IMG/VR virus record: IMGVR_UViG_3300011336_000149
Coordinates: 1-39,256 of that record
Source: a virus
Lineage: Duplodnaviria; Caudoviricetes
Reading direction: 5' to 3' (one strand)
DNA: 39,256 nucleotides
Position 1 is the stretch's first letter; each line of letters begins with the position of its first letter. The position numbers were made by a program, and so were the translations under genes. The notes beneath the pieces were generated by a model that saw only the letters and a program-made list of their open reading frames with translations, had not been told where the DNA came from and made no database searches. Shown here one piece after another: positions 509 to 17,322 of this stretch.

Positions 509-528
509 ACGGAACTTTGGAACACGAA

Positions 529-930
529 ATGAAACCCAACCTACTAGACCTTGACCTCGACCCTGAACTCATGCAATCCTTCGTTGAGCAAGTCAAGCAA
601 ACCAGCATGGCCAAAACCCCCGCCCAAATGCACGAACTGCAAGCCAAGCGCAAGGCAAATGTAAAAACATCTTTAAGGCAAACCCGAGATCAGCGTGCGT
701 TTGATGTTCGGGTTAAATCTTTGAAGCCAAACGAAGATGCCCTACGCAAGCTGCGTTCACTTGCAGTGGGTAATTATTTTGTCGTGCCTGCAACTGAGGC
801 TGTGGCCATACGCAACATGACCGCCCGTGAACTGCGAGATCGTGGCATCAAATACACCACCACCAAGTTTGTTTTTGGGCACTATGAGTACATCAAAGTG
901 CAGAGGTACAACCCCATACACGACAAGTAA
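529..930 (+). CDS. Hypothetical basic protein; C-terminal domain shared with the 6465 and 22027 proteins
   Basis: ORF 517-930, ATG at 529 preferred; downstream of a promoter; pattern LAVGNYFVVP...DRGIKY...IKVQR. Confidence 0.75.
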   Translation: MKPNLLDLDLDPELMQSFVEQVKQTSMAKTPAQMHELQAKRKANVKTSLRQTRDQRAFDVRVKSLKPNEDALRKLRSLAVGNYFVVPATEAVAIRNMTARELRDRGIKYTTTKFVFGHYEYIKVQRYNPIHDK

Positions 931-989: not shown

Positions 990-1018
990 TTGACAAGCCC
1001 CTTTATGTATGGTACAAT
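990..1018 (+). promoter_or_regulatory. Strong sigma70 early promoter with extended -10
   Basis: TTGACA(990-995)-N17-TACAAT(1013-1018), with TG at 1010-1011. Confidence 0.85.
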
Positions 1019-1059
1019 GGCTTTAGCCATTTGGGAAATCGTGCCCATTCATTTTGGTT

Positions 1060-1077
1060 TTTCCTACCCGTAGGAAA
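1060..1077 (+). repeat. Dispersed palindrome copy 2, TTTCCTAC-CC-GTAGGAAA
   Basis: Perfect 8-bp inverted repeat with 2-nt spacer, about 35 nt downstream of the predicted TSS. Confidence 0.9.
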
Positions 1078-1622
1078 GTTCTTTAAAAACATATTAAGCG
1101 TATGTGCCCCAACACATACAGTAAACCGCCGCTCGGAACTAATGTTATACGAGAGACCCACAGGGGGAAAGCATTGCATCGTGTCACAACACCTGCTATG
1201 CCATGAACCCTTCCCTGCGTCTAAGAAGGCGTGCTGTACCCAGTCAGCATACTAGCGTGACTCAGCTAGTAGAAAAGCAAAACGATACTGCCTAAATGTG
1301 TGACTTGCTCTGTACCACAGTACAACAAGCCTAATGCAAGAGGTGCGTGCGAGAGTGGGAGTCTATTTATATTTGATGGGCGATTCAGCCTGATGATTTC
1401 CACCGAACGCAATGCCAATACTTGCAAGGGTTCGTGAACCAACTCAGTTGGGATATGCACGACCGACAAACACTATCGCAGTTAAAAAAACAGATGCCAA
1501 ACAAAGAGTAAGCACTACGCACTATGCCTGTGAAAACCCAGCCATTGTGTAAACAATACAACAAACAAGTTGTATGCAACTGGGAGGGGATACAAGTCCC
1601 CTCTTGGGTGTGTACCACACAC

Positions 1623-1641
1623 TTTCCTACCACGTAGGAAA
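1623..1641 (+). repeat. Dispersed palindrome copy 3, TTTCCTAC-CAC-GTAGGAAA
   Basis: Perfect inverted repeat about 25 nt upstream of the ATG at 1667. Confidence 0.9.
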
Positions 1642-1666
1642 AACTCAACTCGAAACGGAGAATGAA

Positions 1667-2137
1667 ATGAAAGTAGCTGAACTAATCCAAGCCCTGAGTG
1701 AGATGCCACAGGATATGCCTGTGCATTTTTGGGCGAAAGGCAAGCGCCAGAACATCATCGATGTATGCAATGTGGGTGACTGCATTGATATGTACGAAGA
1801 CGAAACCCAATGCTCAAACGTCACGGTTTACTTTGAAGCTGGGGCAGGGGCACACGAAGTAGCGCAGTTTGACAGCGAAGAAACATACATAGCTTGCTTC
1901 CCTGCACTGGAACAGTTGGCCATGCTCAAGGGTTACACCATCACTGAAAGCGTAGGGGAGGCAATGGCCGACCAAGAAAAGATTGAACTGTTAAGCGAGG
2001 CGTTAAACAACCTCACGCAATCTGCCGAGGCATACCTTGAAGATAGATCAACTTTTGCAACTGAAACACTGTCCGTGGACATTGACCACGCATGGGCTGT
2101 TCTCAATAAATTGCCCCCTAAATCTTGGAACCTATAA
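1667..2137 (+). CDS. Hypothetical early protein
   Basis: GGAG RBS before ATG 1667 (MKVAELIQALSEMPQDMPV, a common phage N-terminal pattern); acidic. Confidence 0.8.
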   Translation: MKVAELIQALSEMPQDMPVHFWAKGKRQNIIDVCNVGDCIDMYEDETQCSNVTVYFEAGAGAHEVAQFDSEETYIACFPALEQLAMLKGYTITESVGEAMADQEKIELLSEALNNLTQSAEAYLEDRSTFATETLSVDIDHAWAVLNKLPPKSWNL

Positions 2138-2608: not shown

Positions 2609-4021
2609 ATGGAAACTACATATAACCCCAAGCAAATGCTCGACATCTTTTGGGAGGCAGCTCTCATCTTGAAACGTGGTGCGCCCAAATACCGCTGGTA
2701 CAACGCCGATGCTAAAGACTACTGGCACTCTTGCAACGACCCTTATGAATTGGTGCCTCGTATCACCACACTGGATCGTGACTACAGCCGTGCATGGCAT
2801 ATGCACCAGCAACAGCAACACGCCATCCATCCCGTGGTCATCAAGGCTATGGGCATGGCACGGCCTGACGATTGGCAACAACTGCTACTCGAATGGCCAC
2901 ACAAGGCACAGTCCGACCCATCACGCTTGGCATACACGGCCAACGAACGCAAGGGTGTTGACGACAAGCAAGCCATCACCACGATAGGCAAGTACCTGAC
3001 CAAGCACTTCAGCACACTGCCTGACCATGCGATACGTGACCTAGCTGCTTTGTGTGGCAAGGGTGAGTGCTTCATTGTGAACACCTCAGTGCAGATGATC
3101 CACCACCTAGAGCGTGGGCCGAAGTCTTGTATGCAGTGGGGTCAGAGCAATGTTGATGACCACCCGTACCAAACGTATGCACCCGAGCATGGATGGGGCT
3201 TGGCTGTGCGTACCATAGGCGGTGACACAGTAGGCCGTGCACTTGTGATAAAGAATGAAGGTGAGAAGTATTTTGTGCGTAGCTACTTCCGCAACGATGA
3301 CGGGTACTCAGGCCGTGACGATGTGCTCGAAGCGTGGCTCAGAGAAGAAGGCTATGAGCATCGTGGTGGTTGGAACTATGGGCAGAGGCTCAAGCACATT
3401 GACGACTGCAATGACTGTGGGTTTATTGCACCGTACCTTGATGGTTGCAATCAGCGTGTATCCATAGTGGGCAATACGCTTGTCATTGATGACGATGGTG
3501 AGTACGAGTGTTCCAACACCAATGGCGATGCTGATTCGGTGAACAGCGATGACTGCTCGGATTGTGGCGACCGTATCCGTTCGGGTGACGGCTATTGGGT
3601 GGGCTATCACGAAGACAACCTTGTGTGCTCAAGCTGTGAGGATGGCTATCGCCTAGGCTATGGCCGTAATGGGCGTGAGTATCGCTTCAGCGAAGAGGTT
3701 GCTGTGTATGTGGAGTCACGGGATAGCTACTTCCACACCGACTACCTTGACGACAACAACATCGTTTGGCTTGATAACGGTGAGTACGAACACGTCGATG
3801 AAGCGATTGAGATTGATGGCAACTACTACACCCAAGACGATGAGCGCATCTGCTTGTTCCAAGATACCCAAGAGTGGGGCTTGCAGTGTGACGGCTGGCA
3901 ATGCGTGGCTTCATGCGATTGGTACACCGACAGTGTCGAGTGTGTAGAGGTAGATGGTGAGAAGTATCACCCAAGCAATGCACCCGCCCCCGAAACTGAC
4001 ACTGAAACAAGTGGCGAATAA
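2609..4021 (+). CDS. Conserved phage hypothetical protein with SCM / GRAL / PYLD motifs and acidic Cys-rich (zinc-ribbon-like) C-terminal repeats
   Basis: Long ORF; ATG 2609 follows aaacggaac; CxxC pairs and D/E/Y-rich tail. Confidence 0.8.
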   Translation: METTYNPKQMLDIFWEAALILKRGAPKYRWYNADAKDYWHSCNDPYELVPRITTLDRDYSRAWHMHQQQQHAIHPVVIKAMGMARPDDWQQLLLEWPHKAQSDPSRLAYTANERKGVDDKQAITTIGKYLTKHFSTLPDHAIRDLAALCGKGECFIVNTSVQMIHHLERGPKSCMQWGQSNVDDHPYQTYAPEHGWGLAVRTIGGDTVGRALVIKNEGEKYFVRSYFRNDDGYSGRDDVLEAWLREEGYEHRGGWNYGQRLKHIDDCNDCGFIAPYLDGCNQRVSIVGNTLVIDDDGEYECSNTNGDADSVNSDDCSDCGDRIRSGDGYWVGYHEDNLVCSSCEDGYRLGYGRNGREYRFSEEVAVYVESRDSYFHTDYLDDNNIVWLDNGEYEHVDEAIEIDGNYYTQDDERICLFQDTQEWGLQCDGWQCVASCDWYTDSVECVEVDGEKYHPSNAPAPETDTETSGE

Positions 4022-4038
4022 TTCCTACCAAGTAGGAA
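4022..4038 (+). repeat. Dispersed palindrome copy 5, TTCCTAC-CAA-GTAGGAA
   Basis: Begins immediately after TAA (4019-4021); 21 nt before ATG 4060. Confidence 0.9.
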
Positions 4039-4059
4039 ACTTTTAACTTAAGAAACATT

Positions 4060-5154
4060 ATGAAAACTAAATCTATACTTTACAAAACTCTGACCCGTGC
4101 TCTTTCGATTGCACGGCCACACAACACAACTGCAACTGCGTACTTCACCCAGTGGCTTGAAGATCATGTGCCCAAACACCTGACCGATAAGGCATGGCGT
4201 GACGTGGCAGGCAACCTGCACGTAGATGCTCGCAGTCTTGGCACACACAAAACGCTGTTCGTTGCCCATGTGGATACGGTGCACAAGGAAGTGGCGCCCA
4301 ACAAGTTCACTAAGACTGCAACACACTGGCGTGCGGATGGTGCCCCTCTCGGTGCAGATGACGGTGCGGGCTGTGCCATGCTGATGCACATGATGTGTGC
4401 TGGTGTGCCTGCCTACTACGTGTTCACACAAGGCGAAGAGAAGGGCGGTATCGGTGCGACGCATCTGTTCGAGGAATACCCACAACTGCTCAGTGAATTC
4501 GACAGGGCGATTGCGTTCGACAGACGAGCGAACGACAGCATCATCACAGATCAGGCATACGGCAGATGCTGCTCTGATTCTTTTGCACAACATCTCAGCG
4601 ATGAACTCAACCTTGCTGACGATACGTTTTTCTACAGCCCTGATCCATCAGGTGTGTACACCGACACGGCAGAGTTCGTCACCGTGATACCCGAGTGCAC
4701 CAACATCAGCGTGGGCTACGACCGTGAGCACAGCAACGAGGAATCCCTTGATGTACTGCATTTCTATGCGCTGTCCAAAGCTGTACTGAAAGTCAAGTGG
4801 GATCAGCTACCCACCGAGCGTGAGCCGGGTGTGTATGAGCAAGAGAGCAAGTACTACTCAGGGTTCGGCAATGTATATGGCACAGGTATGTGGCAGTACG
4901 ACACGGCAGATGAGGAAGAGTACCGTGAGATGTTGTACGAAGCACTGTATGACGCAGAGTTCGGCAAGCCCCATGAGTTGCTGTACATGATCGGTGAAGC
5001 GGTGTACCCCGAAGACCCAGAGATGGCGGTCAAGCACATGGACAAACGATTGATTGACCACAAGCTGATCGACAGGGCTATGTACATGGCCAAGTCAGTA
5101 GATGTAGACACAGTACTGTGCACGCTGTTTGAAATGTTGCACACAACACACTGA
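4060..5154 (+). CDS. M28/M20-family zinc peptidase-like protein
   Basis: Metal-binding motifs AHVDTVH, LGADDGAG, GEEKG, AFDRR, YTD and NISVGY..EH. Confidence 0.88.
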   Translation: MKTKSILYKTLTRALSIARPHNTTATAYFTQWLEDHVPKHLTDKAWRDVAGNLHVDARSLGTHKTLFVAHVDTVHKEVAPNKFTKTATHWRADGAPLGADDGAGCAMLMHMMCAGVPAYYVFTQGEEKGGIGATHLFEEYPQLLSEFDRAIAFDRRANDSIITDQAYGRCCSDSFAQHLSDELNLADDTFFYSPDPSGVYTDTAEFVTVIPECTNISVGYDREHSNEESLDVLHFYALSKAVLKVKWDQLPTEREPGVYEQESKYYSGFGNVYGTGMWQYDTADEEEYREMLYEALYDAEFGKPHELLYMIGEAVYPEDPEMAVKHMDKRLIDHKLIDRAMYMAKSVDVDTVLCTLFEMLHTTH

Positions 5155-5164
5155 GGGAGGGACT

Positions 5165-5410
5165 ATGACCAAGACAGGGTGGCCTACGCCACCTTTGATG
5201 CAAGACGATAACCCACAACTGAGCCGATGGTTTGCAACTAGACCTGACGCTCGATATGTTTTTATAAGGAACAACCAAATGAAATACGTAGTAAGAAACC
5301 ACAACGGCACATTGCTCGGTGTATTTGATACCAAGCAGGAAGCTGAGAAAGATGCGCAAGAGTATATGTATGGGACAGGCAATGCTGCCTACATCGAGGA
5401 GGTGATATGA
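5165..5410 (+). CDS. Hypothetical protein
   Basis: GGGAGG RBS before ATG 5165; in-frame internal AAGGA-ATG at 5279. Confidence 0.7.
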   Translation: MTKTGWPTPPLMQDDNPQLSRWFATRPDARYVFIRNNQMKYVVRNHNGTLLGVFDTKQEAEKDAQEYMYGTGNAAYIEEVI

Positions 5411-5577
5411 AATACAAAATCGGAGTGGTCTTTTCATTCTTTCAAATGATTGAGGTGGAAGCCAACGACCTTGGAGAAGCCGAGCACACAGCGTTCTATC
5501 TGTTTGACAAAGATAAATCCACGATGGGTGACGGTGAAATATTCCACAGTGAACGCATTGAAGAGGTGACCAAATGA
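5407..5577 (+). CDS. Small hypothetical protein (56 aa, not in the track; DpnD/PcfM-like IEVEAxxxxEA pattern)
   Basis: MKYKIGVVFSFFQMIEVEANDLGEAEHTAF...; GGAGG RBS; ATGA overlaps on both sides. Confidence 0.75.
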   Translation: MKYKIGVVFSFFQMIEVEANDLGEAEHTAFYLFDKDKSTMGDGEIFHSERIEEVTK

Positions 5578-5867
5578 ATGGACTAGACGCACACTACGCC
5601 AACCTGTTGGCCGACCACCAACGGATGCTTGACGAGCAGGCACAGAAGGAAGAAGAACAGGATCAGGAAGAAGACCTGACATCTGAAGACATGGCATTCA
5701 TGAAGTCGTATCTACGTTGTGTAGCCGTGGGTACACGAGAAGATGTGATTCATTTTATGCGACCAACCAATAAGTACGTCATGCCTGACTACATCTTTGG
5801 GTCTATCAAAAATGCGTGGCTGGTATGGCAAGACGCATTGTCATTTGCAAGAAAGGATAAACCATGA
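5574..5867 (+). CDS. Hypothetical protein
   Basis: GAGG RBS, ATGA coupling. Confidence 0.75.
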   Translation: MNGLDAHYANLLADHQRMLDEQAQKEEEQDQEEDLTSEDMAFMKSYLRCVAVGTREDVIHFMRPTNKYVMPDYIFGSIKNAWLVWQDALSFARKDKP

Positions 5868-6145
5868 CCACACTTAAAGAGCAGATCATCACCCTGCTGG
5901 AAGAAAACCACCCTGCTGAACTCGAACGCCTGACAGGGGTAGACGACACAACGTGCAAGAAGGTTGTGCATCAACTGTACATGGAACGCTTTAATGACGC
6001 TGACTGTTGGGAACCTCAGAGATCAGGCGACATCTGGGTTATCTATGGCAAGACCACCGATGAGTGGATAGATGAAGACGGCAACTACCTAGGCTTCGAT
6101 ACCAAACGTGAAGCTATGGAATACATCAAGGAGACATTCAAATGA
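5864..6145 (+). CDS. Hypothetical protein
   Basis: AAGGA RBS, ATGA coupling. Confidence 0.8.
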   Translation: MTTLKEQIITLLEENHPAELERLTGVDDTTCKKVVHQLYMERFNDADCWEPQRSGDIWVIYGKTTDEWIDEDGNYLGFDTKREAMEYIKETFK

Positions 6146-6273
6146 CACCACAGGAACTATACGAACTGCTCGACAAGGCAGGGTTTGAATACGACATCGT
6201 CGAGATTTTTGAAGGCGTGCGTGTCTTGCGCATAGAAGTTGAAGACGGCCCCGAGGAGGACATCGAATGTTGA
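6142..6273 (+). CDS. Small acidic hypothetical protein (43 aa, not in the track)
   Basis: AAGGAG RBS; MTPQELYELLDKAGFEYDIVEIFEGVRVLRIEVEDGPEEDIEC*. Confidence 0.7.
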   Translation: MTPQELYELLDKAGFEYDIVEIFEGVRVLRIEVEDGPEEDIEC

Positions 6274-6356
6274 CACCTTGGGAAAAATTTGAACGTGTAC
6301 TTTTGCTCATTGCATTTATGGTACTCATGCTTGACCTATTTTATTGGAGGCCATGA
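6267..6356 (+). CDS. 29-aa single-TM membrane peptide (not in the track)
   Basis: GAGGAGG RBS; MLTPWEKFERVLLLIAFMVLMLDLFYWRP*. Confidence 0.7.
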   Translation: MLTPWEKFERVLLLIAFMVLMLDLFYWRP

Positions 6357-6377
6357 TGTAGATACTACAAACACAAT

Positions 6378-6420
6378 TTGACACAACGACCTTTATCATG
6401 TATACTTAACCTTGTTAAGT
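6378..6420 (+). promoter_or_regulatory. sigma70 promoter with overlapping palindrome (candidate operator)
   Basis: TTGACA(6378-6383)-N17-TATACT(6401-6406); ACTTAAC-ctt-GTTAAGT at 6404-6420. Confidence 0.8.
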
Positions 6421-6464
6421 CGAAAACTTAACTATCTTTTAACACAACGGAAACATAAACTATC

Positions 6465-6842
6465 ATGGATATAATCCTTAAGACCGCTAAAGATGCGACA
6501 CGTTTACTCAATGCTATTCGTGCCCAATACATCATCGTGTTACCTACGGGTGAACAGATCATCGAGGGTGATCTCAAACTTCATGTACCCGATGCCACCC
6601 CACCCAAGAAGAAGCGTGCGCAATCACGTAACCCGCTTGGATATTTGCGTGGTCACCTCATGCCCTACCTCAAGCCAATGAAGGTGGGTGATGTGTGTGT
6701 AATACCTATCCCTAACAACTCTGATGTGAAAGAGATTCAAGGCTCAGCCGCATCTATGTCTAATGTGCTGTGGGGTAAGGGTAACTACAAAACGATGCGT
6801 AACAACGAGACGGGGAACGTCGAAGTTCTCCGCATGGGCTGA
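6465..6842 (+). CDS. Hypothetical basic protein, possibly DNA-binding; domain shared with the 529 and 22027 proteins
   Basis: PKKKRA basic patch then MKVGDVCVIP...YKT...VEVLR. Confidence 0.8.
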   Translation: MDIILKTAKDATRLLNAIRAQYIIVLPTGEQIIEGDLKLHVPDATPPKKKRAQSRNPLGYLRGHLMPYLKPMKVGDVCVIPIPNNSDVKEIQGSAASMSNVLWGKGNYKTMRNNETGNVEVLRMG

Positions 6843-6859
6843 GAACTGGTGGCCTTCTT

Positions 6860-7027
6860 ATGAACACGACCAAACTTAAATTGGCTCGCAAACTTTGGTG
6901 CGTGGGGGAAGTTCCCCCGCACATCCAACGCCACAACATCCGTGCGTGGGTTCGTTCGGTTCGCTACCTCGGTAGCAACTGGATTTCCGTACGCAAGGTG
7001 GAGCGTCTCACCAATCCTTCAACTTAA
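6860..7027 (+). CDS. Small Arg/Trp-rich phage protein (55 aa, not in the track)
   Basis: MNTTKLKLARKLWCVGEVPPHIQRHNIRAWVRSVRYLGSNWISVRKVERLTNPST*; fills the intergenic gap. Confidence 0.7.
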   Translation: MNTTKLKLARKLWCVGEVPPHIQRHNIRAWVRSVRYLGSNWISVRKVERLTNPST

Positions 7028-7030
7028 TTT

Positions 7031-7047
7031 TTCCTACTAAGTAGGAA
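7031..7047 (+). repeat. Dispersed palindrome copy 6, TTCCTAC-TAA-GTAGGAA
   Basis: 3 nt after TAA (7025-7027); 20 nt before ATG 7068. Confidence 0.9.
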
Positions 7048-7067
7048 ACATCTTTAACGAAACTGTT

Positions 7068-7937
7068 ATGAAACATAAATCACTATCATCATCTGCAATG
7101 TTGCTTGACATGAACATCTCTGTATACACAGGGCGCAAGCAAGACAAGGTCACGGCTGAAGAGGTCAACCTTGCCAAAAACACCCGATCCAGTAAAGCTG
7201 CTTCGGTTTACAAGTCACTGTTTGTAGGTGACGCTGATCTGGAGGCAATCAATTCACACGCTGGCAAGGTGCGTACGTGGTTGTATTCAGTTACCCTGCC
7301 GTGGTCAGATTCAGGGACAAGGCTTGTGCCGACCAAAGCCTTCTTTGACATCTCACACGAACTCTCGGAACACGAGAAAGAATTCGACCGATTGGTTCAG
7401 CAGTTTGTAACCAACTACGGGGTCAAGATTTCTTCTCAGGCGTTCAAGCTTGGCAAGTTGTTTGACCCTGTCGAGTACCCAACCGTGGAAGCAATCGAGC
7501 ATAAGTTTGGCCTGCGGTATCACTTCACCCCTGTGCCTGAAGCGGGTGACTTCCGTGTGGACATCCCTGCGGAAGCGGCTGAGCAACTCAAGGCCAAGTT
7601 TGAGATGGCTACAACCACCCGTGTACGTGAAGCCATGCAAGAACCTTGGAATCGTTTGTACGAAGAAGTGCAACACATCCGAGATAAGATGATTGCCAAG
7701 GAAGACGGCAAGCCACAGAAGCTGTACCAATCCATGCTCGACAACGCATTGGGTTTGTGTAGTACTTTGAAGTCATTGAACATCTTGGATGACCCTGACT
7801 TGGAAGCGGCACGCCGTGCCCTTGAACTATCTCTGACTAACGTGGACATCAAATCCCTGCGTGAGTCACCTGAGATGCGCAACTCCATCATTACCAAGAT
7901 GGATGAACTGAAAGATAAATTTTCATTGGACATTTAA
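7068..7937 (+). CDS. DUF3150-like alpha-helical protein associated with the AAA/vWA module
   Basis: TLPWSDSGTRLVP, YP..E....KF and DFRV patterns; position upstream of the AAA+ and vWA genes. Confidence 0.65.
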   Translation: MKHKSLSSSAMLLDMNISVYTGRKQDKVTAEEVNLAKNTRSSKAASVYKSLFVGDADLEAINSHAGKVRTWLYSVTLPWSDSGTRLVPTKAFFDISHELSEHEKEFDRLVQQFVTNYGVKISSQAFKLGKLFDPVEYPTVEAIEHKFGLRYHFTPVPEAGDFRVDIPAEAAEQLKAKFEMATTTRVREAMQEPWNRLYEEVQHIRDKMIAKEDGKPQKLYQSMLDNALGLCSTLKSLNILDDPDLEAARRALELSLTNVDIKSLRESPEMRNSIITKMDELKDKFSLDI

Positions 7938-7938
7938 T

Positions 7939-8199
7939 ATGAAATACCAACAACCACCTGACGACCCCAAAATGCGTGTAGAGATCGATGATCTGTACGA
8001 AGCCCTGTTCCAAACCATTTCACAAAGCGGTGCCATGCGTGTTGACGTTGTGATTAACGTACTGCTACGTATGACGTGCGCTATCGCTGTCGAACATGGG
8101 GCGGACAGGCAAACTGTAATGGATGCAACGGGCGCTTGCTTCGACGCCACACTTGCGGCCAAAGACTTATTTGATAAACACGAATCAACCCTGCAATAA
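7939..8199 (+). CDS. Hypothetical protein
   Basis: 86-aa ORF tightly packed in the operon. Confidence 0.7.
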   Translation: MKYQQPPDDPKMRVEIDDLYEALFQTISQSGAMRVDVVINVLLRMTCAIAVEHGADRQTVMDATGACFDATLAAKDLFDKHESTLQ

Positions 8200-8216
8200 A
8201 CTTAAACGGAAACATC

Positions 8217-9272
8217 ATGCAAACTAATATGACATACAACGAAACTGTTGACTTCATCTGTGCCGTAGGCTCAGAGGTAACCCCGATTGTGGAAGGCCAC
8301 ATCGGTTCTGGTAAATCATCTTTGATCCATGCCATCGGCAAGCGATTCCCCAACCACCGCAAGGTGTACATGGACATGACTGTGATGCACGAGGGTGACT
8401 TTCGTGTACCTGCGGTCAACCATACAACCAAGACCACCGAGTTCTACTACAACGAATCGTTCGGGCTAGATAGCGACACGCCTGTGATCCTGATGCTGGA
8501 TGAGTTCGGTAAGGGTTCACGTTCTGCGCAAGATGCGGCACTGCCCCTGCCTGTTGAGAGACGTGCAGGCAACAAGTATCTGCACAAAGAATCCCTTGTG
8601 TTCATGACCACCAACCTAGGTGGCGAGGGTGTGGGCGATATGCTCAAGCCCCATCACCGCAATCGTGTGACTTCCATTCGCATGGGCAAGCAGACGGGTG
8701 ACGAGTGGGTTGAGAACTATGCCAAGGCTAACGGTATTGCACCCGAGGTCATCATGTGGGTAGGCGAGCGCCCCGATGCCCTGCATTCGTATGAGATGTA
8801 CGACAACCCTGACGACAACCCGTTGATCTATCACCCCAAGGCACAGCGGTCAGCGTTCGTGACACACAGATCATTGGAGCAAGCATCCAAGATCATCAAC
8901 AAGCGCCACTTGTTTACACCCAATGCGTTGGAGACAGCGTTGATCGGTACGATTGGTGCACCTGCTGCCCTTGACATTCAGTCATGGATTGCAATGGGTG
9001 ATTCATTACCCAAGCGTGCTGAGATCATCAGTAGCCCCGACACTGCCCGTTTGCCTGACCAAATACCAAGCCGGTTGATGCTTGCGTACCAAGCCTTGAA
9101 CTGGGTGACCGAGGATACGCTCGACTCATGGATGACGTACATGGCCCGTATGCAACGTGAGGTGCAGGCATTGTTCTGTACCAGCATCATCAAGAAAGAA
9201 AGCAAGCAGTTTGTATTAGAGAACGATCAGTTCACTAAGTTTGCTATCGCTAAGCAATACTTGTTTGAGTGA
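8217..9272 (+). CDS. MoxR-like AAA+ ATPase
   Basis: Walker A GHIGSGKS, Walker B ILMLDE, sensor-1 MTTN, arginine finger RNR. Confidence 0.88.
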   Translation: MQTNMTYNETVDFICAVGSEVTPIVEGHIGSGKSSLIHAIGKRFPNHRKVYMDMTVMHEGDFRVPAVNHTTKTTEFYYNESFGLDSDTPVILMLDEFGKGSRSAQDAALPLPVERRAGNKYLHKESLVFMTTNLGGEGVGDMLKPHHRNRVTSIRMGKQTGDEWVENYAKANGIAPEVIMWVGERPDALHSYEMYDNPDDNPLIYHPKAQRSAFVTHRSLEQASKIINKRHLFTPNALETALIGTIGAPAALDIQSWIAMGDSLPKRAEIISSPDTARLPDQIPSRLMLAYQALNWVTEDTLDSWMTYMARMQREVQALFCTSIIKKESKQFVLENDQFTKFAIAKQYLFE

Positions 9273-9279
9273 GATCACC

Positions 9280-10425
9280 ATGCAACTAACACCATCCCAA
9301 CGCCTTGAGCGTGCCCACGTATCCCTGCTACGTGACAGCGAATATATGTGGTTGGCAGGCATCATCCCTATGGGCAGGAACGAAGTAGTGGATGACCCTA
9401 ACATGACGGCACGTACCGATGGGCTTGATTCTGAATACGGTATGCAGTTCATTGCCAAGCTAACCGATGCCGAACTCAAGGGGCTTGTGCTCCATGAGAA
9501 GATGCACTGTGCTTTCAAGCATCTGCGTACGTGGTCGTACCTGCATGACGATGACCCTGAACTTGCGAACATGGCGTGTGACTACGTCATCAACTTACCC
9601 ATCCAAGATAGATACTACAGAGATCAATTTGTAAAACTACCTGATGGTGGGTGCGTTGATGTGAAGTACCGTGACATGGATGCAGGCGAGGTGTTCCAGC
9701 TACTCAAGCAAGACAACAAGCACAACAAGCCCAAGGGCTTTGACCAACACGATTGGGACGGAGCCGCCAAGCTGACTGACGAGCAAGCTGACGAGTTGAG
9801 CAAGGCAGTTGACCAAGCGTTACGTCAAGGCAACATCTTTGCAAGCAAGGCAGGTGCAAACGTTGACCGCAACATACTTGAGATGCTCAAGCCCAAGGTG
9901 GATTGGCGTGAGGTACTTCGTGACTTCATTACCAACTGCAAGCCCGGCGATGACTACACATCGTACAGACGCATCGACCGCAGGTTCATGAGCCAAGATG
10001 TCATGGCGCCCACGTCGTACAGCGACAGTGTGTTTCGTATAGCCCTTGGTGCAGATACATCAGGTTCAATCAATGACAAGGTGTTGGCTACGTTTCTTGC
10101 AGAGGTGCAAGGTGTATGTGATTCGGTTAAACCCGAACTTGTGGACTTGATGTATTGGGGGCACAATGTAGCTGCACACGAAATCTACGAAGCTGATTCG
10201 ATTAGTACACTGCATCAAAGCACACGACCCAAGGGTGGGGGTGGTACAGAACCGAGTTGCGTTACACGCTATATGCGTGAGCAGCGCATTGTGCCGGACT
10301 GTATTGTGATGCTGACCGATGGTGATGTGTTTGGTGACTGGGGTGGTGACTGGCCAGCCCCTGTACTTTGGTGCATCAACAATAAACAAATAGTCGCACC
10401 GCATGGAGTCACGGTGCACATCTAA
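9280..10425 (+). CDS. DUF2201-like metallopeptidase plus vWA domain protein
   Basis: TARTDG, LHEKMH (HExxH), N.ACDYVIN; vWA MIDAS residues DTSGS, GGGT, LTDG. Confidence 0.88.
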   Translation: MQLTPSQRLERAHVSLLRDSEYMWLAGIIPMGRNEVVDDPNMTARTDGLDSEYGMQFIAKLTDAELKGLVLHEKMHCAFKHLRTWSYLHDDDPELANMACDYVINLPIQDRYYRDQFVKLPDGGCVDVKYRDMDAGEVFQLLKQDNKHNKPKGFDQHDWDGAAKLTDEQADELSKAVDQALRQGNIFASKAGANVDRNILEMLKPKVDWREVLRDFITNCKPGDDYTSYRRIDRRFMSQDVMAPTSYSDSVFRIALGADTSGSINDKVLATFLAEVQGVCDSVKPELVDLMYWGHNVAAHEIYEADSISTLHQSTRPKGGGGTEPSCVTRYMREQRIVPDCIVMLTDGDVFGDWGGDWPAPVLWCINNKQIVAPHGVTVHI

Positions 10426-10432
10426 GGAAGTA

Positions 10433-10693
10433 ATGGAACGGAACCCAAAATGTATGTATCGGATTGTGAAGATGCCCAAGTCAGGGCGTTGGAAGGTCAC
10501 GGTATTTCTAGGCGCAGAAGCTAAGCTGAATGCGTCTTATACCCACGAAGCATTGCCTGAGTGGATACGTAAAGACATCGCATTGCTAAGCATGGTGCAC
10601 CAGATGGATGACATACCTTCTATCGGGCACCGTGTGGGCGATGTGTATTGGTTAACACCAAAGGATAAAGATGAAAGCTGTACTGGAGTTTAA
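10433..10693 (+). CDS. Hypothetical protein
   Basis: AAGGAAG upstream of ATG 10433. Confidence 0.7.
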   Translation: MERNPKCMYRIVKMPKSGRWKVTVFLGAEAKLNASYTHEALPEWIRKDIALLSMVHQMDDIPSIGHRVGDVYWLTPKDKDESCTGV

Positions 10694-10871
10694 CTACCCA
10701 GAAGATGAACGCAAACTACTGTATGCGATCAAGGGTAAGGATATGTACGTAGCCCTTGTCAATCTCAGGGTACTTGTAGCAAAGCAGTTAACACACAAAG
10801 CGGATATGTCCGACACACTGGAGGGTGTGCGCGATGTCATCGAAGATATTTTTTATGAATTAGGGGAATAG
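10671..10871 (+). CDS. Hypothetical protein (MKAVLEFNYPED-type small phage protein)
   Basis: AAGGA RBS; common small-phage N-terminal pattern. Confidence 0.8.
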   Translation: MKAVLEFNYPEDERKLLYAIKGKDMYVALVNLRVLVAKQLTHKADMSDTLEGVRDVIEDIFYELGE

Positions 10872-10872
10872 C

Positions 10873-11055
10873 ATGGATGAAGAAACACGGGAGATGGATT
10901 TTAGAATCGCTGACCTTGAAGCAGAGGTCAAGCGTTTGAAGAGAGTTGAGAGCGCGGCTCGCCTTGTGATGAAAGCGTTCAGCAATCAGTTGGACTACGA
11001 CTCATGGGACAAAGCCCTTGACACGCTAGAGGCGGTGCTGAAGGAGAAGCCATGA
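10873..11055 (+). CDS. Small coiled-coil hypothetical protein
   Basis: AGGGG RBS, heptad pattern. Confidence 0.7.
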   Translation: MDEETREMDFRIADLEAEVKRLKRVESAARLVMKAFSNQLDYDSWDKALDTLEAVLKEKP

Positions 11056-11519
11056 ACAGAGAAGACATTATTCGCATGGCACGAGAGGCGGGGATTGCAA
11101 ACTCATGGGACTTGAATTGGCAAGACAAAATCATTGAACGCTTTGCCGCCCTTATAGCTTCTGCCGAGCGTGAGGCGTGTGCAGATTTATGTAAAGAAAT
11201 GTATTTGTCAGGTGACATGGATACTGGTTTGGCAGAGGAAGCCATCCGAGCAAGGGGTGACGGCATAACATTAACCACCATACGGCATCCAAGAGGTAAG
11301 CCCGCGCTTGGTGATTTAAACCCCGAGTCATTGGAGACTGTGGAGATTGATCTGCCTGAGCGTGAGTGGGTTAGTCCAACAGACAAAGAAATAGAAGCTA
11401 TATGGGAGGTCGCCATGTTTGCTAATTATGGAGTTGGTGCTGAGTTAAGCAATCAACCTTTTGTTCATTACGCCCGAGCCATTGAAGCCAAACTCAAGGA
11501 GAAAAATCATGACAAATGA
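11052..11519 (+). CDS. Modular hypothetical protein (MNREDIIRMAREAG / EREACA / EWVxxTDxE / AIEAKLKEKN modules)
   Basis: AAGGAG RBS, ATGA overlap. Confidence 0.8.
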   Translation: MNREDIIRMAREAGIANSWDLNWQDKIIERFAALIASAEREACADLCKEMYLSGDMDTGLAEEAIRARGDGITLTTIRHPRGKPALGDLNPESLETVEIDLPEREWVSPTDKEIEAIWEVAMFANYGVGAELSNQPFVHYARAIEAKLKEKNHDK

Positions 11520-11736
11520 ACCAGTATTGTGGCACTACCCAGATGGCAAGCCAGACCAATGTACAACAGACAAAGCCTACGCTGAGAAAGACCCCGCTTG
11601 GACACCGATGTATTACAAGCATGAGTGGGTTGGGCTGACAGATGAGGAGTGGCTATCGCTTGGGTGCAAGTCCGTTGAAGAAGTACGCATTGGCCTTGCT
11701 ATTCAAACCAAACTCAAGGAGAAGAATTATGGATGA
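11509..11736 (+). CDS. Modular hypothetical protein sharing its C-terminal module with the 11052 protein
   Basis: AAGGAG RBS; EWVGLTDEE...AIQTKLKEKN. Confidence 0.78.
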   Translation: MTNEPVLWHYPDGKPDQCTTDKAYAEKDPAWTPMYYKHEWVGLTDEEWLSLGCKSVEEVRIGLAIQTKLKEKNYG

Positions 11737-11929
11737 CGATGACATTCAAGAATACGAAGCATCAGGCTGGCGTAAGCGTCAGGTTGCTATGGATAAAGAA
11801 TACAACTACGAACGTGAAATGCGCAACCGAACGATAGAAGAAGTAGCCAAGGCGGTGCATGGCTTTAAAGCTTTTGAGAAGGTCACTATGGATAGCTTTG
11901 CGGCATACATCAGGGGGTTAAAACGATAA
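11729..11929 (+). CDS. Hypothetical protein
   Basis: AAGGAG RBS before ATG 11729 (MDDDDIQEY). Confidence 0.75.
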   Translation: MDDDDIQEYEASGWRKRQVAMDKEYNYEREMRNRTIEEVAKAVHGFKAFEKVTMDSFAAYIRGLKR

Positions 11930-12108
11930 TGCCAAGACCGAAACCACCTGAGAAACTGTTAGGCAGGCAAGTCAGGATGTCCGACAGACAGTGGATCATC
12001 CTTAACCAACTTGGTGGTGCTGAATGGTTGAGAAATATTCTTGATAAGAAAGCGCCTATGCCCAAACAGTACTACGACAAACTCTTACAGGAACAAAAAA
12101 ATGATTGA
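11929..12108 (+). CDS. Small putative ribbon-helix-helix-like DNA-binding protein (59 aa, not in the track)
   Basis: TAATG overlap; MPRPKPPEKLLGRQVRMSDRQWIILNQLGGAEWLRNILDKK... Confidence 0.65.
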   Translation: MPRPKPPEKLLGRQVRMSDRQWIILNQLGGAEWLRNILDKKAPMPKQYYDKLLQEQKND

Positions 12109-12355
12109 ATCCGTAAAGCAACTGGAACTATTCCCCACTGCCAATGATATGCAGGTGGGCGGTGACCACTACATGGACAAGACCATACAACCTTGGGACT
12201 ACATTGTCAGCAACAACCTTGGCTATCTTGAAGGCAACATCATCAAGTACATCTCGCGTTGGAAAGAAAAGAACGGCGTAGCCGATCTGCGCAAGGCGCA
12301 ACATTACCTAGCCAAACTGATTGAGGTGGCAGATGGCACAGACCCCAGAAGTTAA
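12101..12355 (+). CDS. DUF3310 (SaV-like / T7 gp1.7-related) protein
   Basis: QVGGDHY...GNIIKYISRW..KNG..DL.KA.HYL signature. Confidence 0.88.
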   Translation: MIESVKQLELFPTANDMQVGGDHYMDKTIQPWDYIVSNNLGYLEGNIIKYISRWKEKNGVADLRKAQHYLAKLIEVADGTDPRS

Positions 12356-12746
12356 AGTCAAAGCCCGTGTGCGTGCCATCCTTGATGCATTGGGTATCTA
12401 TTACTTCATGCCCCCTGCCAACGGGTACGGCAGGCAAGGCATCCCCGACATCATCTGCTGTATGGCTGGCAGGTTCGTAGCCATCGAGTGCAAGGCAGGC
12501 AAGGGTCAACTGACTGAACTGCAAAAGCGTGAGCTAGATAAGATCATGAACGCCGATGGCCTGACCTATGTTGCACGAGAAGATAATTTAGTGGAACTCA
12601 AAGCCATGCTTCAAGAAGAGATAGCACCCACACGCAAGCACTTGGTTATCAAACGAATACCTGCGCCCCCCGGCACAGTATACAAATCAGAAGACGAGAT
12701 CATTGCCGAAGAAGGTCTTGATGTATTAGCAAGAAGGAACTCATGA
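12333..12746 (+). CDS. VRR-NUC domain nuclease
   Basis: TPE.KVK, GIPDII, FVAIECKA, LTELQ (PD-(D/E)xK). Confidence 0.88.
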   Translation: MAQTPEVKVKARVRAILDALGIYYFMPPANGYGRQGIPDIICCMAGRFVAIECKAGKGQLTELQKRELDKIMNADGLTYVAREDNLVELKAMLQEEIAPTRKHLVIKRIPAPPGTVYKSEDEIIAEEGLDVLARRNS

Positions 12747-14626
12747 ACCTAATCACAATCGACTTTGAAACTTACTACGATCAGAGGTACAGCCTGACCA
12801 AGATCAGCACCGAAGAGTACGTACGTGACAACAGGTTTGAAACCATTGGCTTTGCATACAAGATAAACGATGAACGATGTGTGTGGGTGACGGGCACCAA
12901 TGAGTACATCCAAAAGGTACTGGACACCCTGCCGTGGGATACCTCACTTGTGCTGGCACACAACACCATGTTTGATGGTGCGATCCTGTCGTGGCGATAC
13001 GGCATCAAGCCCAAGGGCTGGCTAGATACCATGAGCATGGGGCGTGCCCTGCATGGCGTAGATCAAAGCGTATCTCTTGCATCAATGGCTGTACGCTATG
13101 GTGTGGGGGAGAAGGGCACAGAGGTACATGTTGCTATGGGTATAGGGCGTGAGTTCTTTAGCCCTGACAAGCTTGCCGATTATGGTGCGTACTGTAAAAA
13201 CGATGTGCAGTTAACGTACAACATCTTTCAAATGATGATAAGCGCAGGTTTCCCCAAGGGTGAACTTAAGCTGATTGATCTGACGCTGAGTATGTTTATT
13301 CACCCTGTGCTCAAACTTAATACCGAAGCCTTGAAAGCGCACCTGATTGACACGGTGGCGCAGAAGAAAGCCCATCTGGTTAACGCACTGCAAGCTGTGG
13401 GCAAGCAAGACCTTGCGGTCAAGCACATCCTTGGTGACGAGGAAACGCAGGCCGAGGTACGCAAAACCCTGATGAGTAACGTACAGTTTGCCACCATGCT
13501 CAAGGGCTTAGATGTGGAAGCCCCCACCAAGATCAGCCCCGCCACAGGCAAGCCCACACTGGCGTTGGCCAAGAGTGACGAAGCGTTCAAGGCTTTACTT
13601 GAGCACGAAGATGTGCGGGTGCAAGCCCTGTGCGCGGCACGCATCGGAACCAAGTCAACCCTAGAAGAAACCCGTACTCAACGGTTCATGGACATCAGCA
13701 AGCGGGGGGCGTTCCCCATACCCCTGAAGTACTATGCTGCCCATACCGGAAGGTGGGGTGGTACAGATTCAGTTAACTTGCAGAACCTACCTAGCCGTGG
13801 GCCGAACGCAGGCAAGCTGAAGAAAGCGATCCTTGCACCAGAGGGTTATGTGTTTATTGATGCTGACTCAGCCCAGATCGAAGCCCGTACGTTGGCTTGG
13901 GAGTCGGGTCAGGATGACTTAGTGAAGGCGTTTGCAGATGGCGAAGATGTATACAAAATCATGGCGACGGCTATATATGGCAAGAGTGAAGCTGAGATCA
14001 CGAAGGACGAACGGTTTGTCGGTAAGACTACTATTCTGGGTGCCGGATACGGAATGGGTGGTGCAAAGTTTCAAGCCCAACTCAAAACTTTTGGTGCTGA
14101 GATGTCGACCGACGAGTGTGCGCGTATTATTTCGGTCTATCGTGACCGCTATGCAAAAGTCCCATTACTTTGGCGTGAATCGCAAGAAGCCTTACGTTGC
14201 ATGATGCGTGGCATGACCATGAAGCTGGGTAAAGATGGCCTGCTCACAGTGAATGAGAAAGGCATCCTCCTCCCGAACGGGCTACACATCTACTATAACG
14301 GCTTGGCAGAAGTTATTGAGAATGACAAGCGGCAGTTTACATATCAAACACGCAACGGCCCTAATAAAATATATGGTGGAAAAGTTGTTGAGAACTTCAC
14401 ACAGGCCATTGCAAGGTGTATCATTGGCGATCAAATGCTAAAAATTGCTAAGCGATACAAGGTCGTGCTTACTGTGCACGATGCTATTGGTATTGTCGCT
14501 AGGCAAGAAGAAGCCGATGAAGCACGTGCTTATGTGGAATCCTGCATGCGTTGGGTTCCGTCATGGGCTGAAGGTTTACCAGTCAACTGCGAAAGCGGTA
14601 TGGGATTGAGTTACGGAGATTGTTGA
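12743..14626 (+). CDS. polA: Family A DNA polymerase with 3'-5' exonuclease domain
   Basis: ExoI DFET, ExoII HNTMFD, ExoIII YCKND; TGRW, NLQNLP, motif A DSAQIEAR, motif B RFVGKTTILGAGYG, motif C VHD. Confidence 0.96.
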   Translation: MNLITIDFETYYDQRYSLTKISTEEYVRDNRFETIGFAYKINDERCVWVTGTNEYIQKVLDTLPWDTSLVLAHNTMFDGAILSWRYGIKPKGWLDTMSMGRALHGVDQSVSLASMAVRYGVGEKGTEVHVAMGIGREFFSPDKLADYGAYCKNDVQLTYNIFQMMISAGFPKGELKLIDLTLSMFIHPVLKLNTEALKAHLIDTVAQKKAHLVNALQAVGKQDLAVKHILGDEETQAEVRKTLMSNVQFATMLKGLDVEAPTKISPATGKPTLALAKSDEAFKALLEHEDVRVQALCAARIGTKSTLEETRTQRFMDISKRGAFPIPLKYYAAHTGRWGGTDSVNLQNLPSRGPNAGKLKKAILAPEGYVFIDADSAQIEARTLAWESGQDDLVKAFADGEDVYKIMATAIYGKSEAEITKDERFVGKTTILGAGYGMGGAKFQAQLKTFGAEMSTDECARIISVYRDRYAKVPLLWRESQEALRCMMRGMTMKLGKDGLLTVNEKGILLPNGLHIYYNGLAEVIENDKRQFTYQTRNGPNKIYGGKVVENFTQAIARCIIGDQMLKIAKRYKVVLTVHDAIGIVARQEEADEARAYVESCMRWVPSWAEGLPVNCESGMGLSYGDC

Positions 14627-15297
14627 TGGCAAAGATTCCTGCATGGTCATTCAGTAGCCTGAAGACATTTACCACATGCCCCAAGAAGTTCTACCATACC
14701 AAGGTACTCAAGGACATCAAGGAACCCGAGGATGAGCAAGCCCTCTATGGCAAGTTGGTACACGAGGTTGCTGAGTTGTACATACGGGATGGCAAGGAAA
14801 TCCCTGAGAAGTTTGCTTTCATCAAGCCTGCGCTCGATAGCCTGCTCAAGATACAGGGCGAGAAGTTCTGTGAATTAAAGATGGCGCTGACTGAAAAGCT
14901 GGAACCCTGCGACTTCTTTTCCCCTGACTGTTGGTTTCGTGGTGTAGCCGACCTGCTGATCGTTGACCGTGAGAAGGGTGAAGCCCGTGTGGTTGACTAC
15001 AAGCTAGGCAAGTCACGCTACGCTGACCTAGGGCAGTTGGAACTCATGGCACTTGCAGTGTTCAAAATGTTTCCAGAAGTCAAGAAGGTCAAGGGTGGCT
15101 TGTTGTTCTTAGCCGAGGATAAGTTTGTACCAACTATGTTTGAAGTAGAACAACAGCACAGGTACTGGGGCAACTGGATGCCCAAAGTCATGATGTTGGA
15201 AGGTGCATACAGCGCAGATATTTGGAATGCAAAACCCAACGGATTGTGTAAAAATTACTGCTGGGTGTCATCCTGCGCCCACTGTGGAAGGAAATGA
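14626..15297 (+). CDS. Cas4/RecB-like PD-(D/E)xK exonuclease
   Basis: WSFSSL...CP, ADLL...VDYK, QLELMA and C-terminal Cys cluster; TGATG overlap with pol. Confidence 0.88.
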   Translation: MAKIPAWSFSSLKTFTTCPKKFYHTKVLKDIKEPEDEQALYGKLVHEVAELYIRDGKEIPEKFAFIKPALDSLLKIQGEKFCELKMALTEKLEPCDFFSPDCWFRGVADLLIVDREKGEARVVDYKLGKSRYADLGQLELMALAVFKMFPEVKKVKGGLLFLAEDKFVPTMFEVEQQHRYWGNWMPKVMMLEGAYSADIWNAKPNGLCKNYCWVSSCAHCGRK

Positions 15298-15298
15298 T

Positions 15299-15577
15299 AT
15301 GCCCTACGTAAACAAACCTAGACCCTATAAGAAAGAATACCAACAGCAGTTGGACAGAAATGAATTACCTACAAGAAGAAAACGTGAGCAAGCCCGTGAC
15401 CTTTACGACAAAGAAGGCATTGACCGTACGGGAAAAGATATTGACCACAAGCGCCCACTATCTAAAGGTGGAAGCACGGCCAAGAGCAACCTGCAACTCA
15501 AAGCACCAAGCGCCAACCGTTCGTTCAGCCGTAACAGCGACCACACCGTAAAGGTAAACAAGCCGAAGAAGAAATAA
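15299..15577 (+). CDS. HNH endonuclease-like small protein
   Basis: DIDHKRPLSKGGS...SNL......ANRS; AAGGA RBS. Confidence 0.82.
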   Translation: MPYVNKPRPYKKEYQQQLDRNELPTRRKREQARDLYDKEGIDRTGKDIDHKRPLSKGGSTAKSNLQLKAPSANRSFSRNSDHTVKVNKPKKK

Positions 15578-15583
15578 AGAATA

Positions 15584-15745
15584 CGTGCCACGTCAGGTGT
15601 GAGTGGTGGCACGGGGGAGTTTACTAAAAAGTTGAACCCTTTAAACCGCATCAGTCAGAGTTTTTAACATTCCGTTTAGATGATCTGACCGATTGACACC
15701 CGTAAGGTGTCACCTAGCGATCAAAAGTGGATGTCACTTTTGGTC
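15584..15745 (+). ncRNA. Structured intergenic element or 5' leader of the helicase gene
   Basis: Four consecutive stems of 7-11 bp (see findings). Confidence 0.5.
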
Positions 15746-15765
15746 TGTTTTGCATTGGAGAATGT

Positions 15766-17322
15766 ATGGAAATCATTGACGGAAAAGCATTAAAACTTAA
15801 ATTAAAGAACCCGTACAGGGTCTTGAACGTGATACCCAAGAGCGCATTGCTTGAGGAAGGCCCCATCAGTACAGTGATGGTGCACTGGGGTTTGGAAGAA
15901 GCGCAGGTCTTAAAGAACCTGAAGGTCAAGAACGTACCATCCCCCATCGTTGCCAAGTACAGTTGGCCGGGCATCTATCAGCCGTTCACGCATCAGAAAC
16001 AAACAGCCGCGTTTCTTACCCTGCACAGGCGTGCCTTCTGCTTCTCAGAGCCGGGCACGGGCAAGACACTCTCGATCACATGGGCGTGTGATTACTTGAT
16101 GAACACCAAGCACATCAAGCGGGTGCTGATTATCTGCCCCCTATCAATCATGCAGTCAGCGTGGCAAAACGACATCTTCAAAGGTGCGATGCACAGGAAG
16201 GTTGGCATCGCCTATGGCTCAAAAGAAAAGCGGCAGCAAGTAATCAATTCAGATGCAGAGTTTGTCATCATCAACTACGACGGCGTGCCCATTGTGGAAG
16301 ACGACATTGCTAAGGCTAACTTTGACATGGTGGTGATCGATGAGGCCAACGCCTACAAGACCGCAACCACCACACGGTGGCGCACCCTGAACCGGATCGT
16401 CAAACCCAGTATGTGGCTATGGATGTTGACAGGAACCCCTGCCTCACAGTCGCCCCTTGATGCGTATGGTTTGGCTAAGCTAGTTAACCCATCGGCTACA
16501 CCCCGTAGCTTCTCCATGTACCGTGACCAAGTGATGAACAAGATCACTCAGTTTAAGTGGGCACCCAAACGGGAAGCAGAGCAGGTGGTCAGCACACTGC
16601 TTCAGCCTGCCATCAGGTTCACCAAAGAGCAATGCCTTGACCTGCCAGACTTGCTGTACGCAGAGCGTGAAGTTCCCATGACCCCACAGCAGATACGCTA
16701 CTACGAGAAGCTACGCAAGGTGATGGCCATGCAAGCGGCAGGGGAGGAAGTCACGGCGATCAACGCCGCCGCCAAGTTGAACAAGCTATTGCAAATCTCC
16801 TGTGGCGCAGTCGATTCCGACAGTGGTGAGATCGTGACCTTTGATGCCAGTAGCCGCACGGCAGTGCTCAAAGAAGTCATTGACGAATCCAGCCATAAGG
16901 TATTGGTGTTTGCCCCATACCGCCATGCCATTGAGATTCTGTTTGAAGAACTACGCAGGGATGGCTACACAGTGGATGTGATACACGGGGGTGTACCTGC
17001 TGGCAGGCGCACTGAAATCTTTCGCAAGTTCCAAGACGAGCCAGACCCACGGGTGCTTGTCATACAGCCCCAAGCTGCATCACACGGTGTCACCTTACAC
17101 GCGGCAAACACCATTGTTTGGTGGGCGCCCATCACATCCTACGAGACATACGCGCAGGCAAACGCACGTATCCACAGGGCAGGGCAAGTCAACAAATGTT
17201 TGGTTGTCAAGCTCCAAGGAAGTCCAGTAGAAGCCAAGCTGTACAAAGCTTTAGAAACAAAAGAGTTAGCGCAGTTCAATTTGATGGAACTTTATAAAGA
17301 TGAATTCGACCTTAACAAATAA
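15766..17322 (+). CDS. SNF2-family (SF2) helicase
   Basis: Q motif HQ, EPGTGKT, IICP, IDEA, LTGTP, QANARIHRAGQ; GGAG RBS before ATG 15766. Confidence 0.93.
   Translation: MEIIDGKALKLKLKNPYRVLNVIPKSALLEEGPISTVMVHWGLEEAQVLKNLKVKNVPSPIVAKYSWPGIYQPFTHQKQTAAFLTLHRRAFCFSEPGTGKTLSITWACDYLMNTKHIKRVLIICPLSIMQSAWQNDIFKGAMHRKVGIAYGSKEKRQQVINSDAEFVIINYDGVPIVEDDIAKANFDMVVIDEANAYKTATTTRWRTLNRIVKPSMWLWMLTGTPASQSPLDAYGLAKLVNPSATPRSFSMYRDQVMNKITQFKWAPKREAEQVVSTLLQPAIRFTKEQCLDLPDLLYAEREVPMTPQQIRYYEKLRKVMAMQAAGEEVTAINAAAKLNKLLQISCGAVDSDSGEIVTFDASSRTAVLKEVIDESSHKVLVFAPYRHAIEILFEELRRDGYTVDVIHGGVPAGRRTEIFRKFQDEPDPRVLVIQPQAASHGVTLHAANTIVWWAPITSYETYAQANARIHRAGQVNKCLVVKLQGSPVEAKLYKALETKELAQFNLMELYKDEFDLNK

Follow-up and report, generated by a model that had tools for sequence, protein, structure and literature searches.

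The window analysed here, a stretch of 39,256 bases that makes up the whole of one virus record (62% complete) from an uncultured phage, carries a structured-RNA stretch at the head of its early arm, and comparison with relatives supports the view that this RNA belongs to a previously uncatalogued family of large structured noncoding phage RNAs. The original prediction had put forward a large structured RNA of a kind not yet described; covariation, loss of the small open reading frame (ORF) in homologues and the lack of any Rfam match support such an RNA, heading the early operon. Judged from the sequences compared, the family is both real and new. As to its role, we tentatively propose a boxA-led multi-domain RNA, transcribed in the style of rRNA, which would act free as an immediate-early decoy or scaffold for host proteins; the immediate-early timing is suggested by its position behind the promoter.

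The window encodes, among others, DNA polymerase, helicase, primase and virion genes. The terminase, read from an overlapping and locally identical contig, showed 42-47% identity to its counterparts in HTVC023P-type and other roughly 60-kb phages; for the polymerase the identity was 34% to those of Pseudomonas phage KPP25 and the Rhizobium RHph_TM phages. The predicted promoter with its extended -10 was confirmed (Table 1), and a promoter-like sigma70 site was also found upstream of the RNA in the homologues. Two other sites of the early arm reach 11/12 without the TG (6378-6406 and 17337-17364), and boxA follows neither of them. The 137-aa gene upstream occurs in a relative that has no RNA and is therefore not its obligate partner. 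Just 3' of this gene (932-947) lies a palindrome of a second kind, similar to those in many relatives. Elsewhere in the window, short tandem repeats and a very AT-rich tract at 13-65 and 180-215 look origin-like, and the minus strand of 22317-30881 encodes a 2854-aa polyvalent protein with LPD38 and ART-PolyVal domains. Rhizobium phage RHph_TM3_14A (locus L249) has an AT-rich gap in its early region (19356-20124); the start of its early arm (17700-18200) is noncoding and holds two copies of a word resembling the junction strand of the RNA, with no core-model match.

Table 1. Positions of the RNA, its parts and its flanking features in the window.
Feature	Position	Strand	Remarks
Upstream 137-aa gene	517..930	+	no known family
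Sigma70-type early promoter, extended -10	990..1018	+	TTGACA-17-TACAAT with TG; 11/12 consensus positions
Small 5' leader hairpin	1033..1046	+	from minimum free energy (MFE) fold; kept in close homologues
Palindrome copy 2	1060..1077		lineage-specific, outside the conserved RNA; just 5' of boxA, the boxB position of rrn leaders
boxA (GTTCTTTAAAA)	1078..1088	+	predicted NusB/NusE loading site; most conserved 5' word of the RNA
Hairpin H1	1100..1119	+	compensatory variants
Universal core, three-way junction	1127..1231	+	P1 1127-1130/1228-1231; P2 1132-1153; long variable P3 from 1157
Hairpin D1	1233..1248	+	conserved loop U-A-S-Y-C-A-G-U
Helix D2	1250..1271	+	extra multibranch domain carried there in many relatives
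Optional domain E	1288..1481	+	two covarying stems with a conserved internal loop between, then a multiloop
3' domain	1503..1620	+	last three hairpins 1569-1580, 1584-1603, 1608-1620
Palindrome copy 3	1623..1641		absent there in 4/19 close homologues
First early gene	1656..2137	+	ribosome-binding site (RBS) 1656-1660; likely start 1667

Folding of 1025-1645 gave a z-score of -5.57 that none of 20 shuffles equalled, palindromes included. When the palindromes were removed, the values were -3.7/-3.9 on the plus strand versus -0.2/-0.5 on the minus strand (25 shuffles), and the fold of 1078-1621 (z -2.85) was better than 100 of 100 shuffles. The stretch thus folds better than its shuffles with or without the palindromes, and without them on the plus strand only. 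Among 150-nt windows the 3' end alone was strong (z -6.3 at 1501-1650), with -2.1 at 1126-1275 and about 0 at 1276-1575. In distant members z was -2 or lower in 12 of 23, and the plus strand folded better than the minus strand in 18 of 23 (8 shuffles each).

All 22 of the 22 motifs quoted in the original prediction are in place, and the local stems are real, as their pairing is kept in homologues despite changed letters. The four long-range pairs fared differently. The pair tgcaag/cttgca is a stem of domain E and was kept, as a relaxed pattern, in 12 of 19 full-length close homologues, while the other three lacked support. Both arms of gcattgc/gcaatgc were present in 4/19 of these homologues and both arms of cacagg/cctgtg in 2/19, so that neither is conserved. 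For catgaaccctt/aagggttcgtg, 9-11 of 11 pairs were kept in 10 of 16 parsed close homologues (three were unparsed), and in the remaining parsed ones 8/10 pairs in two and 6/11 in four. Since both of its arms have local partners, this is a putative alternative fold and no established pseudoknot of the kind proposed from its crossing with gcattgc/gcaatgc.

The absence of a credible ORF behind the promoter was also confirmed. The frame at 1031-1255, which might have been the functional unit, stays open for at least 74 codons in 2 of 19 close homologues, including the one identical copy of the window, and is broken in the other 17, supporting an RNA element and not a small protein. The existence of this 74-codon ORF and of flanking palindromes in the window could be read as a small protein gene, a palindrome cassette at DNA level or chance, but the broken ORF, the G-U pairs on the plus strand, the strand-asymmetric folding and the persistence of the family where palindromes differ or are absent all stand against it. 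Such a non-RNA reading is extremely improbable and is largely refuted by core covariation together with ORF loss.

Relatives fetched through neighbouring proteins carry the RNA element at the same place, and a scan with the D1 hairpin returned 30 viral and at least 120 metagenome loci. From 73 records with promoter and 5' context, the window included, we obtained 39 distinct full-length copies of 425-720 nt (promoter to RBS), 48-94% identical to the window except for one that is identical to it. Distant members were added by scans with the P2 loop (20 loci), domain E (53 loci), promoter plus boxA (120 of about 190 loci) and terminase (40 of 80 loci searched). By hand count, more than 80 IMG/VR contigs carry a core-model match or the D1 pattern in context. 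Among the matches listed, 129 of 149 loci could be parsed, giving 55 distinct 120-nt cores, and the loci searched hold one copy of the RNA per phage. Among cultured phages, 50,697 records searched by blastn with three members yielded no usable match, and the core model gave no credible match in five cultured relatives. In bacterial genomes 59 of 59 pattern matches were due to chance, and two of 151 Burkholderiales genomes had fragments of 20-22 bits, without promoter or boxA context. Three RNA libraries contained small shares, their contigs running over the RNA and other phage parts; strand and level are not readable from such contigs.

The search for homologues and covariation that bears on the prediction found both, as the core pairs covary (relatedness uncorrected). 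When 45 distinct cores were compared with anchors that impose no pairing, all 45 paired at P1.3 (CG 32, TA 13), P2.3 (four pair types), P2.4 and D1.3. In the D1 stem, 4/4 positions pair in 45/45 distinct cores, the variable position being CG in 28 and TA in 17, and the stem is fully exchanged in distant members. A model-free MAFFT alignment of 30 cores showed two-sided changes in 16 of 26 pairs, relatedness uncorrected, and 92.9% of its cells pair versus 77% in shuffles and 24-51% in slid controls (0/500 shuffles reached this level); the pair count is lowered by six sequences whose P3 is out of register. When 45 more diverse cores were fitted to the model, 21/26 pairs were two-sided and 93.6% paired, a result that leans to the model and is uncorrected for relatedness. 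A further pair table, which is conditioned on pairing (one false positive), was left out of the covariation evidence. Outside the core, domain E could be parsed in 30 of 39 full-length copies, 7/8 stem positions pairing in 30/30 and six of them with two-sided changes, and its stems covary across lineages. The terminal three hairpins were parsed in 36/39 copies with stems exchanged between lineages, and a linker rich in A and C ties the 3' domain to domain E.

Whole domains come and go around this core. Of the 39 copies, 8 have no domain E, and in L051 it could not be parsed; in other members whole domains expand P3 (to as much as about 230 nt) or D2. The shortest member, L320 (match 4882-5002, minus strand), keeps the three-way junction core and the 3' hairpins only, without D1 and D2. 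In a four-gamete test on 19 close copies, 21 of 28 module pairs showed all four allele combinations, indicating recombination among the domains; for the single-base D1 marker, recurrent mutation could account for this outcome, and mosaicism, which is common in phage DNA, need not signify an arms race. Natural deletion and domain-swap variants exist in this large and diverse RNA family, so that comparison can reveal its core, and one of its short natural members is available for structural study. Two further details were seen: the P2 loop (1132-1153) is near-identical in lineages otherwise about 50% alike, and P3 (1166-1207) holds an internal loop with tandem G-A pairs that looks kink-turn-like by eye. 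Three tertiary candidates were rejected. A pseudoknot of the D1 loop with a CUG of the 3' trio lacked consistent covariation at two flanking positions, and L320 keeps the CUG without D1; a pseudoknot of the H1 loop and interdigitated T-loops for tRNA binding were both inconsistent, judged by eye.

The palindromes on either side had been taken as the boundaries of a cassette, and this part of the prediction failed: they are not RNA ends, because they vary among lineages, some phages with the RNA have none, and in others they lie inserted in hairpin loops. They belong to a family with a variable centre of 2-3 nt that lies between early genes (320-334, 1061-1076 in copy 2, 1624-1640 in copy 3, 2536-2552, 4022-4038 and 7031-7047) and precedes several of them, its type differing by lineage. 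Cross-pairing of copies 2 and 3 is possible in the window and could offer a processing stem, but four of the 19 close copies are without the 3' one. Beyond the palindromes no end-to-end stem of the RNA is conserved.

The boxA at 1078-1088 is a feature that the original prediction had missed. It matches the consensus GYTCTTTAANA (PMC5725501) in sense and near the promoter, and a relaxed pattern gave two matches in the window versus 0.31 expected. An exact boxA was found in 53 of 54 distinct 5' ends, where it lies 49-80 nt from the start, in 19 of 20 loci, in 36 of 40 domain-E loci and in 17 of 19 terminase-found homologues; these counts allow one degenerate position, and the four sets, found without use of boxA, overlap. 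L051, L320 (degenerate), L335 and 4/40 domain-E loci are without an exact boxA. Conversely, a promoter-plus-boxA scan of IMG/VR was an efficient finder of such RNAs, returning the core at E<=0.002 in 37 of 120 loci, among the matches listed (of about 190). Beside these, the loci L399/L437, L409, L419/L422 and L456 have other long, hairpin-rich and apparently gene-free leaders 3' of a boxA match; they have no core-model match and are possibly further RNA families in the same slot. L399/L437 carry a window-type palindrome and a similar 3' hairpin, and L419/L422 a word resembling the start of domain E.

The phage boxA variants GTTCTTTAAAA and GTTCATTAAAA, the commonest wordings near the window, are the rrn boxA sequences of G001, the Comamonadaceae genome of locus L230, titled Acidovorax radicis. 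In G001 and G002 the same words stand before the 16S gene and in the spacer between 16S and 23S, and the wording agreed with the rrn boxA of the plausible hosts G001, G002 and G003. The boxA wording alone suggests a betaproteobacterial host. According to published work, boxA loads NusB/S10 (NusB/NusE) and is enough for assembly of the rrn complex, by which Rho is blocked and RNA folding chaperoned (PMC13753749, PMC8632103, PMC4807359). The targets described for the Nus factors are rRNA, suhB and CRISPR operons (PMC5725501, PMC13753749, PMC8632103, PMC4807359; the CRISPR link is from PMC13753749); the present family would add phage noncoding RNAs to these few rrn-type targets of the Nus complex.

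Over 13-18 nt from boxA the RNA leader is similar to the rrn leader and spacer sequences in G001 and G002, and beyond boxA the RNA has no similarity to rRNA. The resemblance would fit a sponge for Nus factors or the rRNA-synthesis machinery, a massive early rrn-like leader that starves host ribosome synthesis. However, the boxA region would suffice for that purpose and members whose boxA is degenerate still have the conserved junction core, so we consider the sponge improbable. Antisense pairing to rRNA or to the phage's own genome was tried and rejected, the best matches being boxA itself, a 15-nt match of one lineage and 11-mers at E=4.

Loss of the RNA is informative as to what boxA serves. 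In the sister phage L007/L318 (terminase 86% identical) the RNA and boxA are both missing and the promoter leads directly to a gene, indicating that boxA serves the RNA and not the operon. Six relatives with enough sequence (L341, L347, L350 and L353-L355; terminase 66-67% identity) are likewise without RNA and boxA and have a small protein gene behind the promoter, in the first-gene slot that the RNA holds. The first gene 3' of the RNA differs between relatives: of the 39 downstream products, 29 were of sufficient length for comparison, and these fell into 16 clusters.

The proposed decoy or scaffold builds on the fold, the family, the boxA with its loss along with the RNA, and the optional recombining domains; from these we infer early transcription by host polymerase, Nus loading, excision and host-protein binding. 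Host sigma70 polymerase would make the RNA first after DNA entry. The boxA would load the rRNA-type Nus complex of the host, whereby the host rRNA-transcription machinery would likely fold the RNA and let it escape Rho. Host RNases may then excise it from the early transcript, no terminator following. Once free, the RNA would likely serve in early infection as a protein-binding decoy or scaffold. Each folded domain, set on unpaired A/C-rich linkers, may present a surface to a host RNA-binding protein, a defence or a takeover target, and domains may be swapped as hosts change. More speculatively, the RNA might be an RNA-only takeover toolkit in host rRNA mode, whose swappable domains each neutralise a different host protein and are shuffled like anti-defence genes; we hold this to be rather unlikely.

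The main rival to this action in trans is a giant leader acting in cis, in which boxA and the domains stay tethered to RNA polymerase and make it processive through the early operon, replacing lambda N by RNA alone as HK022 put does. The RNA lies right behind the promoter, has a boxA and shows no terminator-like site in its last 200 nt (0/39 copies), and put and nut are precedents (PMC8632103). With no terminator and no conserved end-to-end stem, release as a free RNA is conjectural and a cis role conceivable. However, the sister phage L007/L318 and the six other relatives run this operon with neither RNA nor boxA, intrinsic terminators are not in excess (20 versus 19.9 in shuffles at 4000-23000), and further promoters stand at 6378 and 17337. 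In addition, put is about 65 nt long and boxA alone suffices for complex assembly, which leaves the optional domains unexplained. A cis antitermination leader is therefore possible but doubtful in our view. The trans decoy or scaffold is favoured because the downstream gene varies, relatives run the operon without the RNA or its boxA, intrinsic terminators are unenriched and the RNA occupies a first-gene slot. It counts against this reading that the sequence analysis found no binding partner, target or phenotype of the RNA.

To our knowledge, bacteria and phages rarely have large RNAs, and the handful solved so far are catalysts or cages. Rfam gave no match at gathering score in the window, none on the RNA at E<=10 (one chance match beyond the RNA at E=7.5) and none to the RNA in 10 + 18 homologue loci at E<=1, and ARAGORN found no tRNA or tmRNA gene in the window, whose record is 62% complete. 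The 28 homologue loci had no tRNA match either. Known self-cleaving ribozymes, group I and II introns, tmRNA and riboswitches gave no Rfam or ARAGORN match, in agreement with the earlier statement that signatures of tRNA, tmRNA, RNase P and introns were not recognised. The covariance models of GOLLD, ROOL and OLE matched neither the window, the RNA nor the 28 homologue loci.

A catalytic RNA, be it a novel ribozyme for self-cleavage or processing or a remnant of RNase P or of an intron, would agree with the invariant junction letters and the multiway junctions. A few short words of the RNA seem to us to stand in an order similar to type A RNase P RNA (RF00010). This likeness was rejected: local alignment of nine members with three RNase P RNAs gave z<=1.9, the pairing pattern differs, the core model found nothing in five RNase P loci, and there is no RF00010 match. 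Large bacterial RNAs are described as often being catalysts (PMC5737381), but with these results and no Rfam ribozyme, intron or RNase P match, catalysis is quite improbable here.

The size and multiway junctions would also suit an RNA-only multimer or cage like GOLLD and ROOL that holds or shields other molecules. There is a modest excess of GNRA-closed hairpins (28 on the plus and 10 on the minus strand, 17.6 expected; 23 members), and the internal loop of domain E, which we counted for the cage, looks receptor-like by eye. On the other hand, a symmetric shell is hard to square with whole domains that come and go and with about two-fold length differences; conserved kissing loops were not found and the window has no tRNA gene. 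We regard a cage as a low-probability reading.

In the open-access literature surveyed the family is undescribed, and none of it joins boxA, phage and large noncoding RNA; the available text of PMC12286853 and PMC5737381 makes no mention of boxA. Fremin et al. 2023 (PMC10690425) report 10,006 candidate structured RNAs, of 29-151 nt for IMG/VR, and could include short fragments of the family; six family motifs and six contig identifiers were absent from those of its supplements that were searched, namely files other than the alignment and model files. Phage decoy RNAs in counter-defence have precedents in Racr RNAs (PMC10651486) and phage tRNAs (PMC11555353), which are short mimics of a known host RNA, whereas no mimicked RNA was identified here. 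The suggested likeness to ROOL and GOLLD held for size and ornateness and for nothing further among the features predicted. As these are described (PMC12286853, PMC5737381), the RNA shares with them being a large, multi-junction, phage-borne orphan, dispensable in some relatives, with a conserved core and a variable periphery. GOLLD and ROOL form homo-oligomeric cages, as this RNA may conceivably do. They often lie beside tRNA genes, whereas the present RNA is not near tRNA genes, heads the early operon of roughly 60-75-kb phages, is boxA-led, and has no terminator and no Rfam match. Like lambda nut/N and HK022 put (PMC8632103), it lies just 3' of an early phage promoter and would engage the host elongation machinery; unlike them, it is several times longer than put and has its hairpin ahead of boxA, in the manner of rrn; an N-like protein was not identified, and the RNA is lost in sister phages. 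The rrn leader, whose order is boxB-boxA-boxC (PMC8632103), differs in its cargo, which here is a phage RNA without rRNA similarity beyond boxA and without a conserved end-to-end processing stem. The RNA nevertheless follows the rrn plan of a promoter, a hairpin, an exact boxA consensus and then a long untranslated structured RNA.
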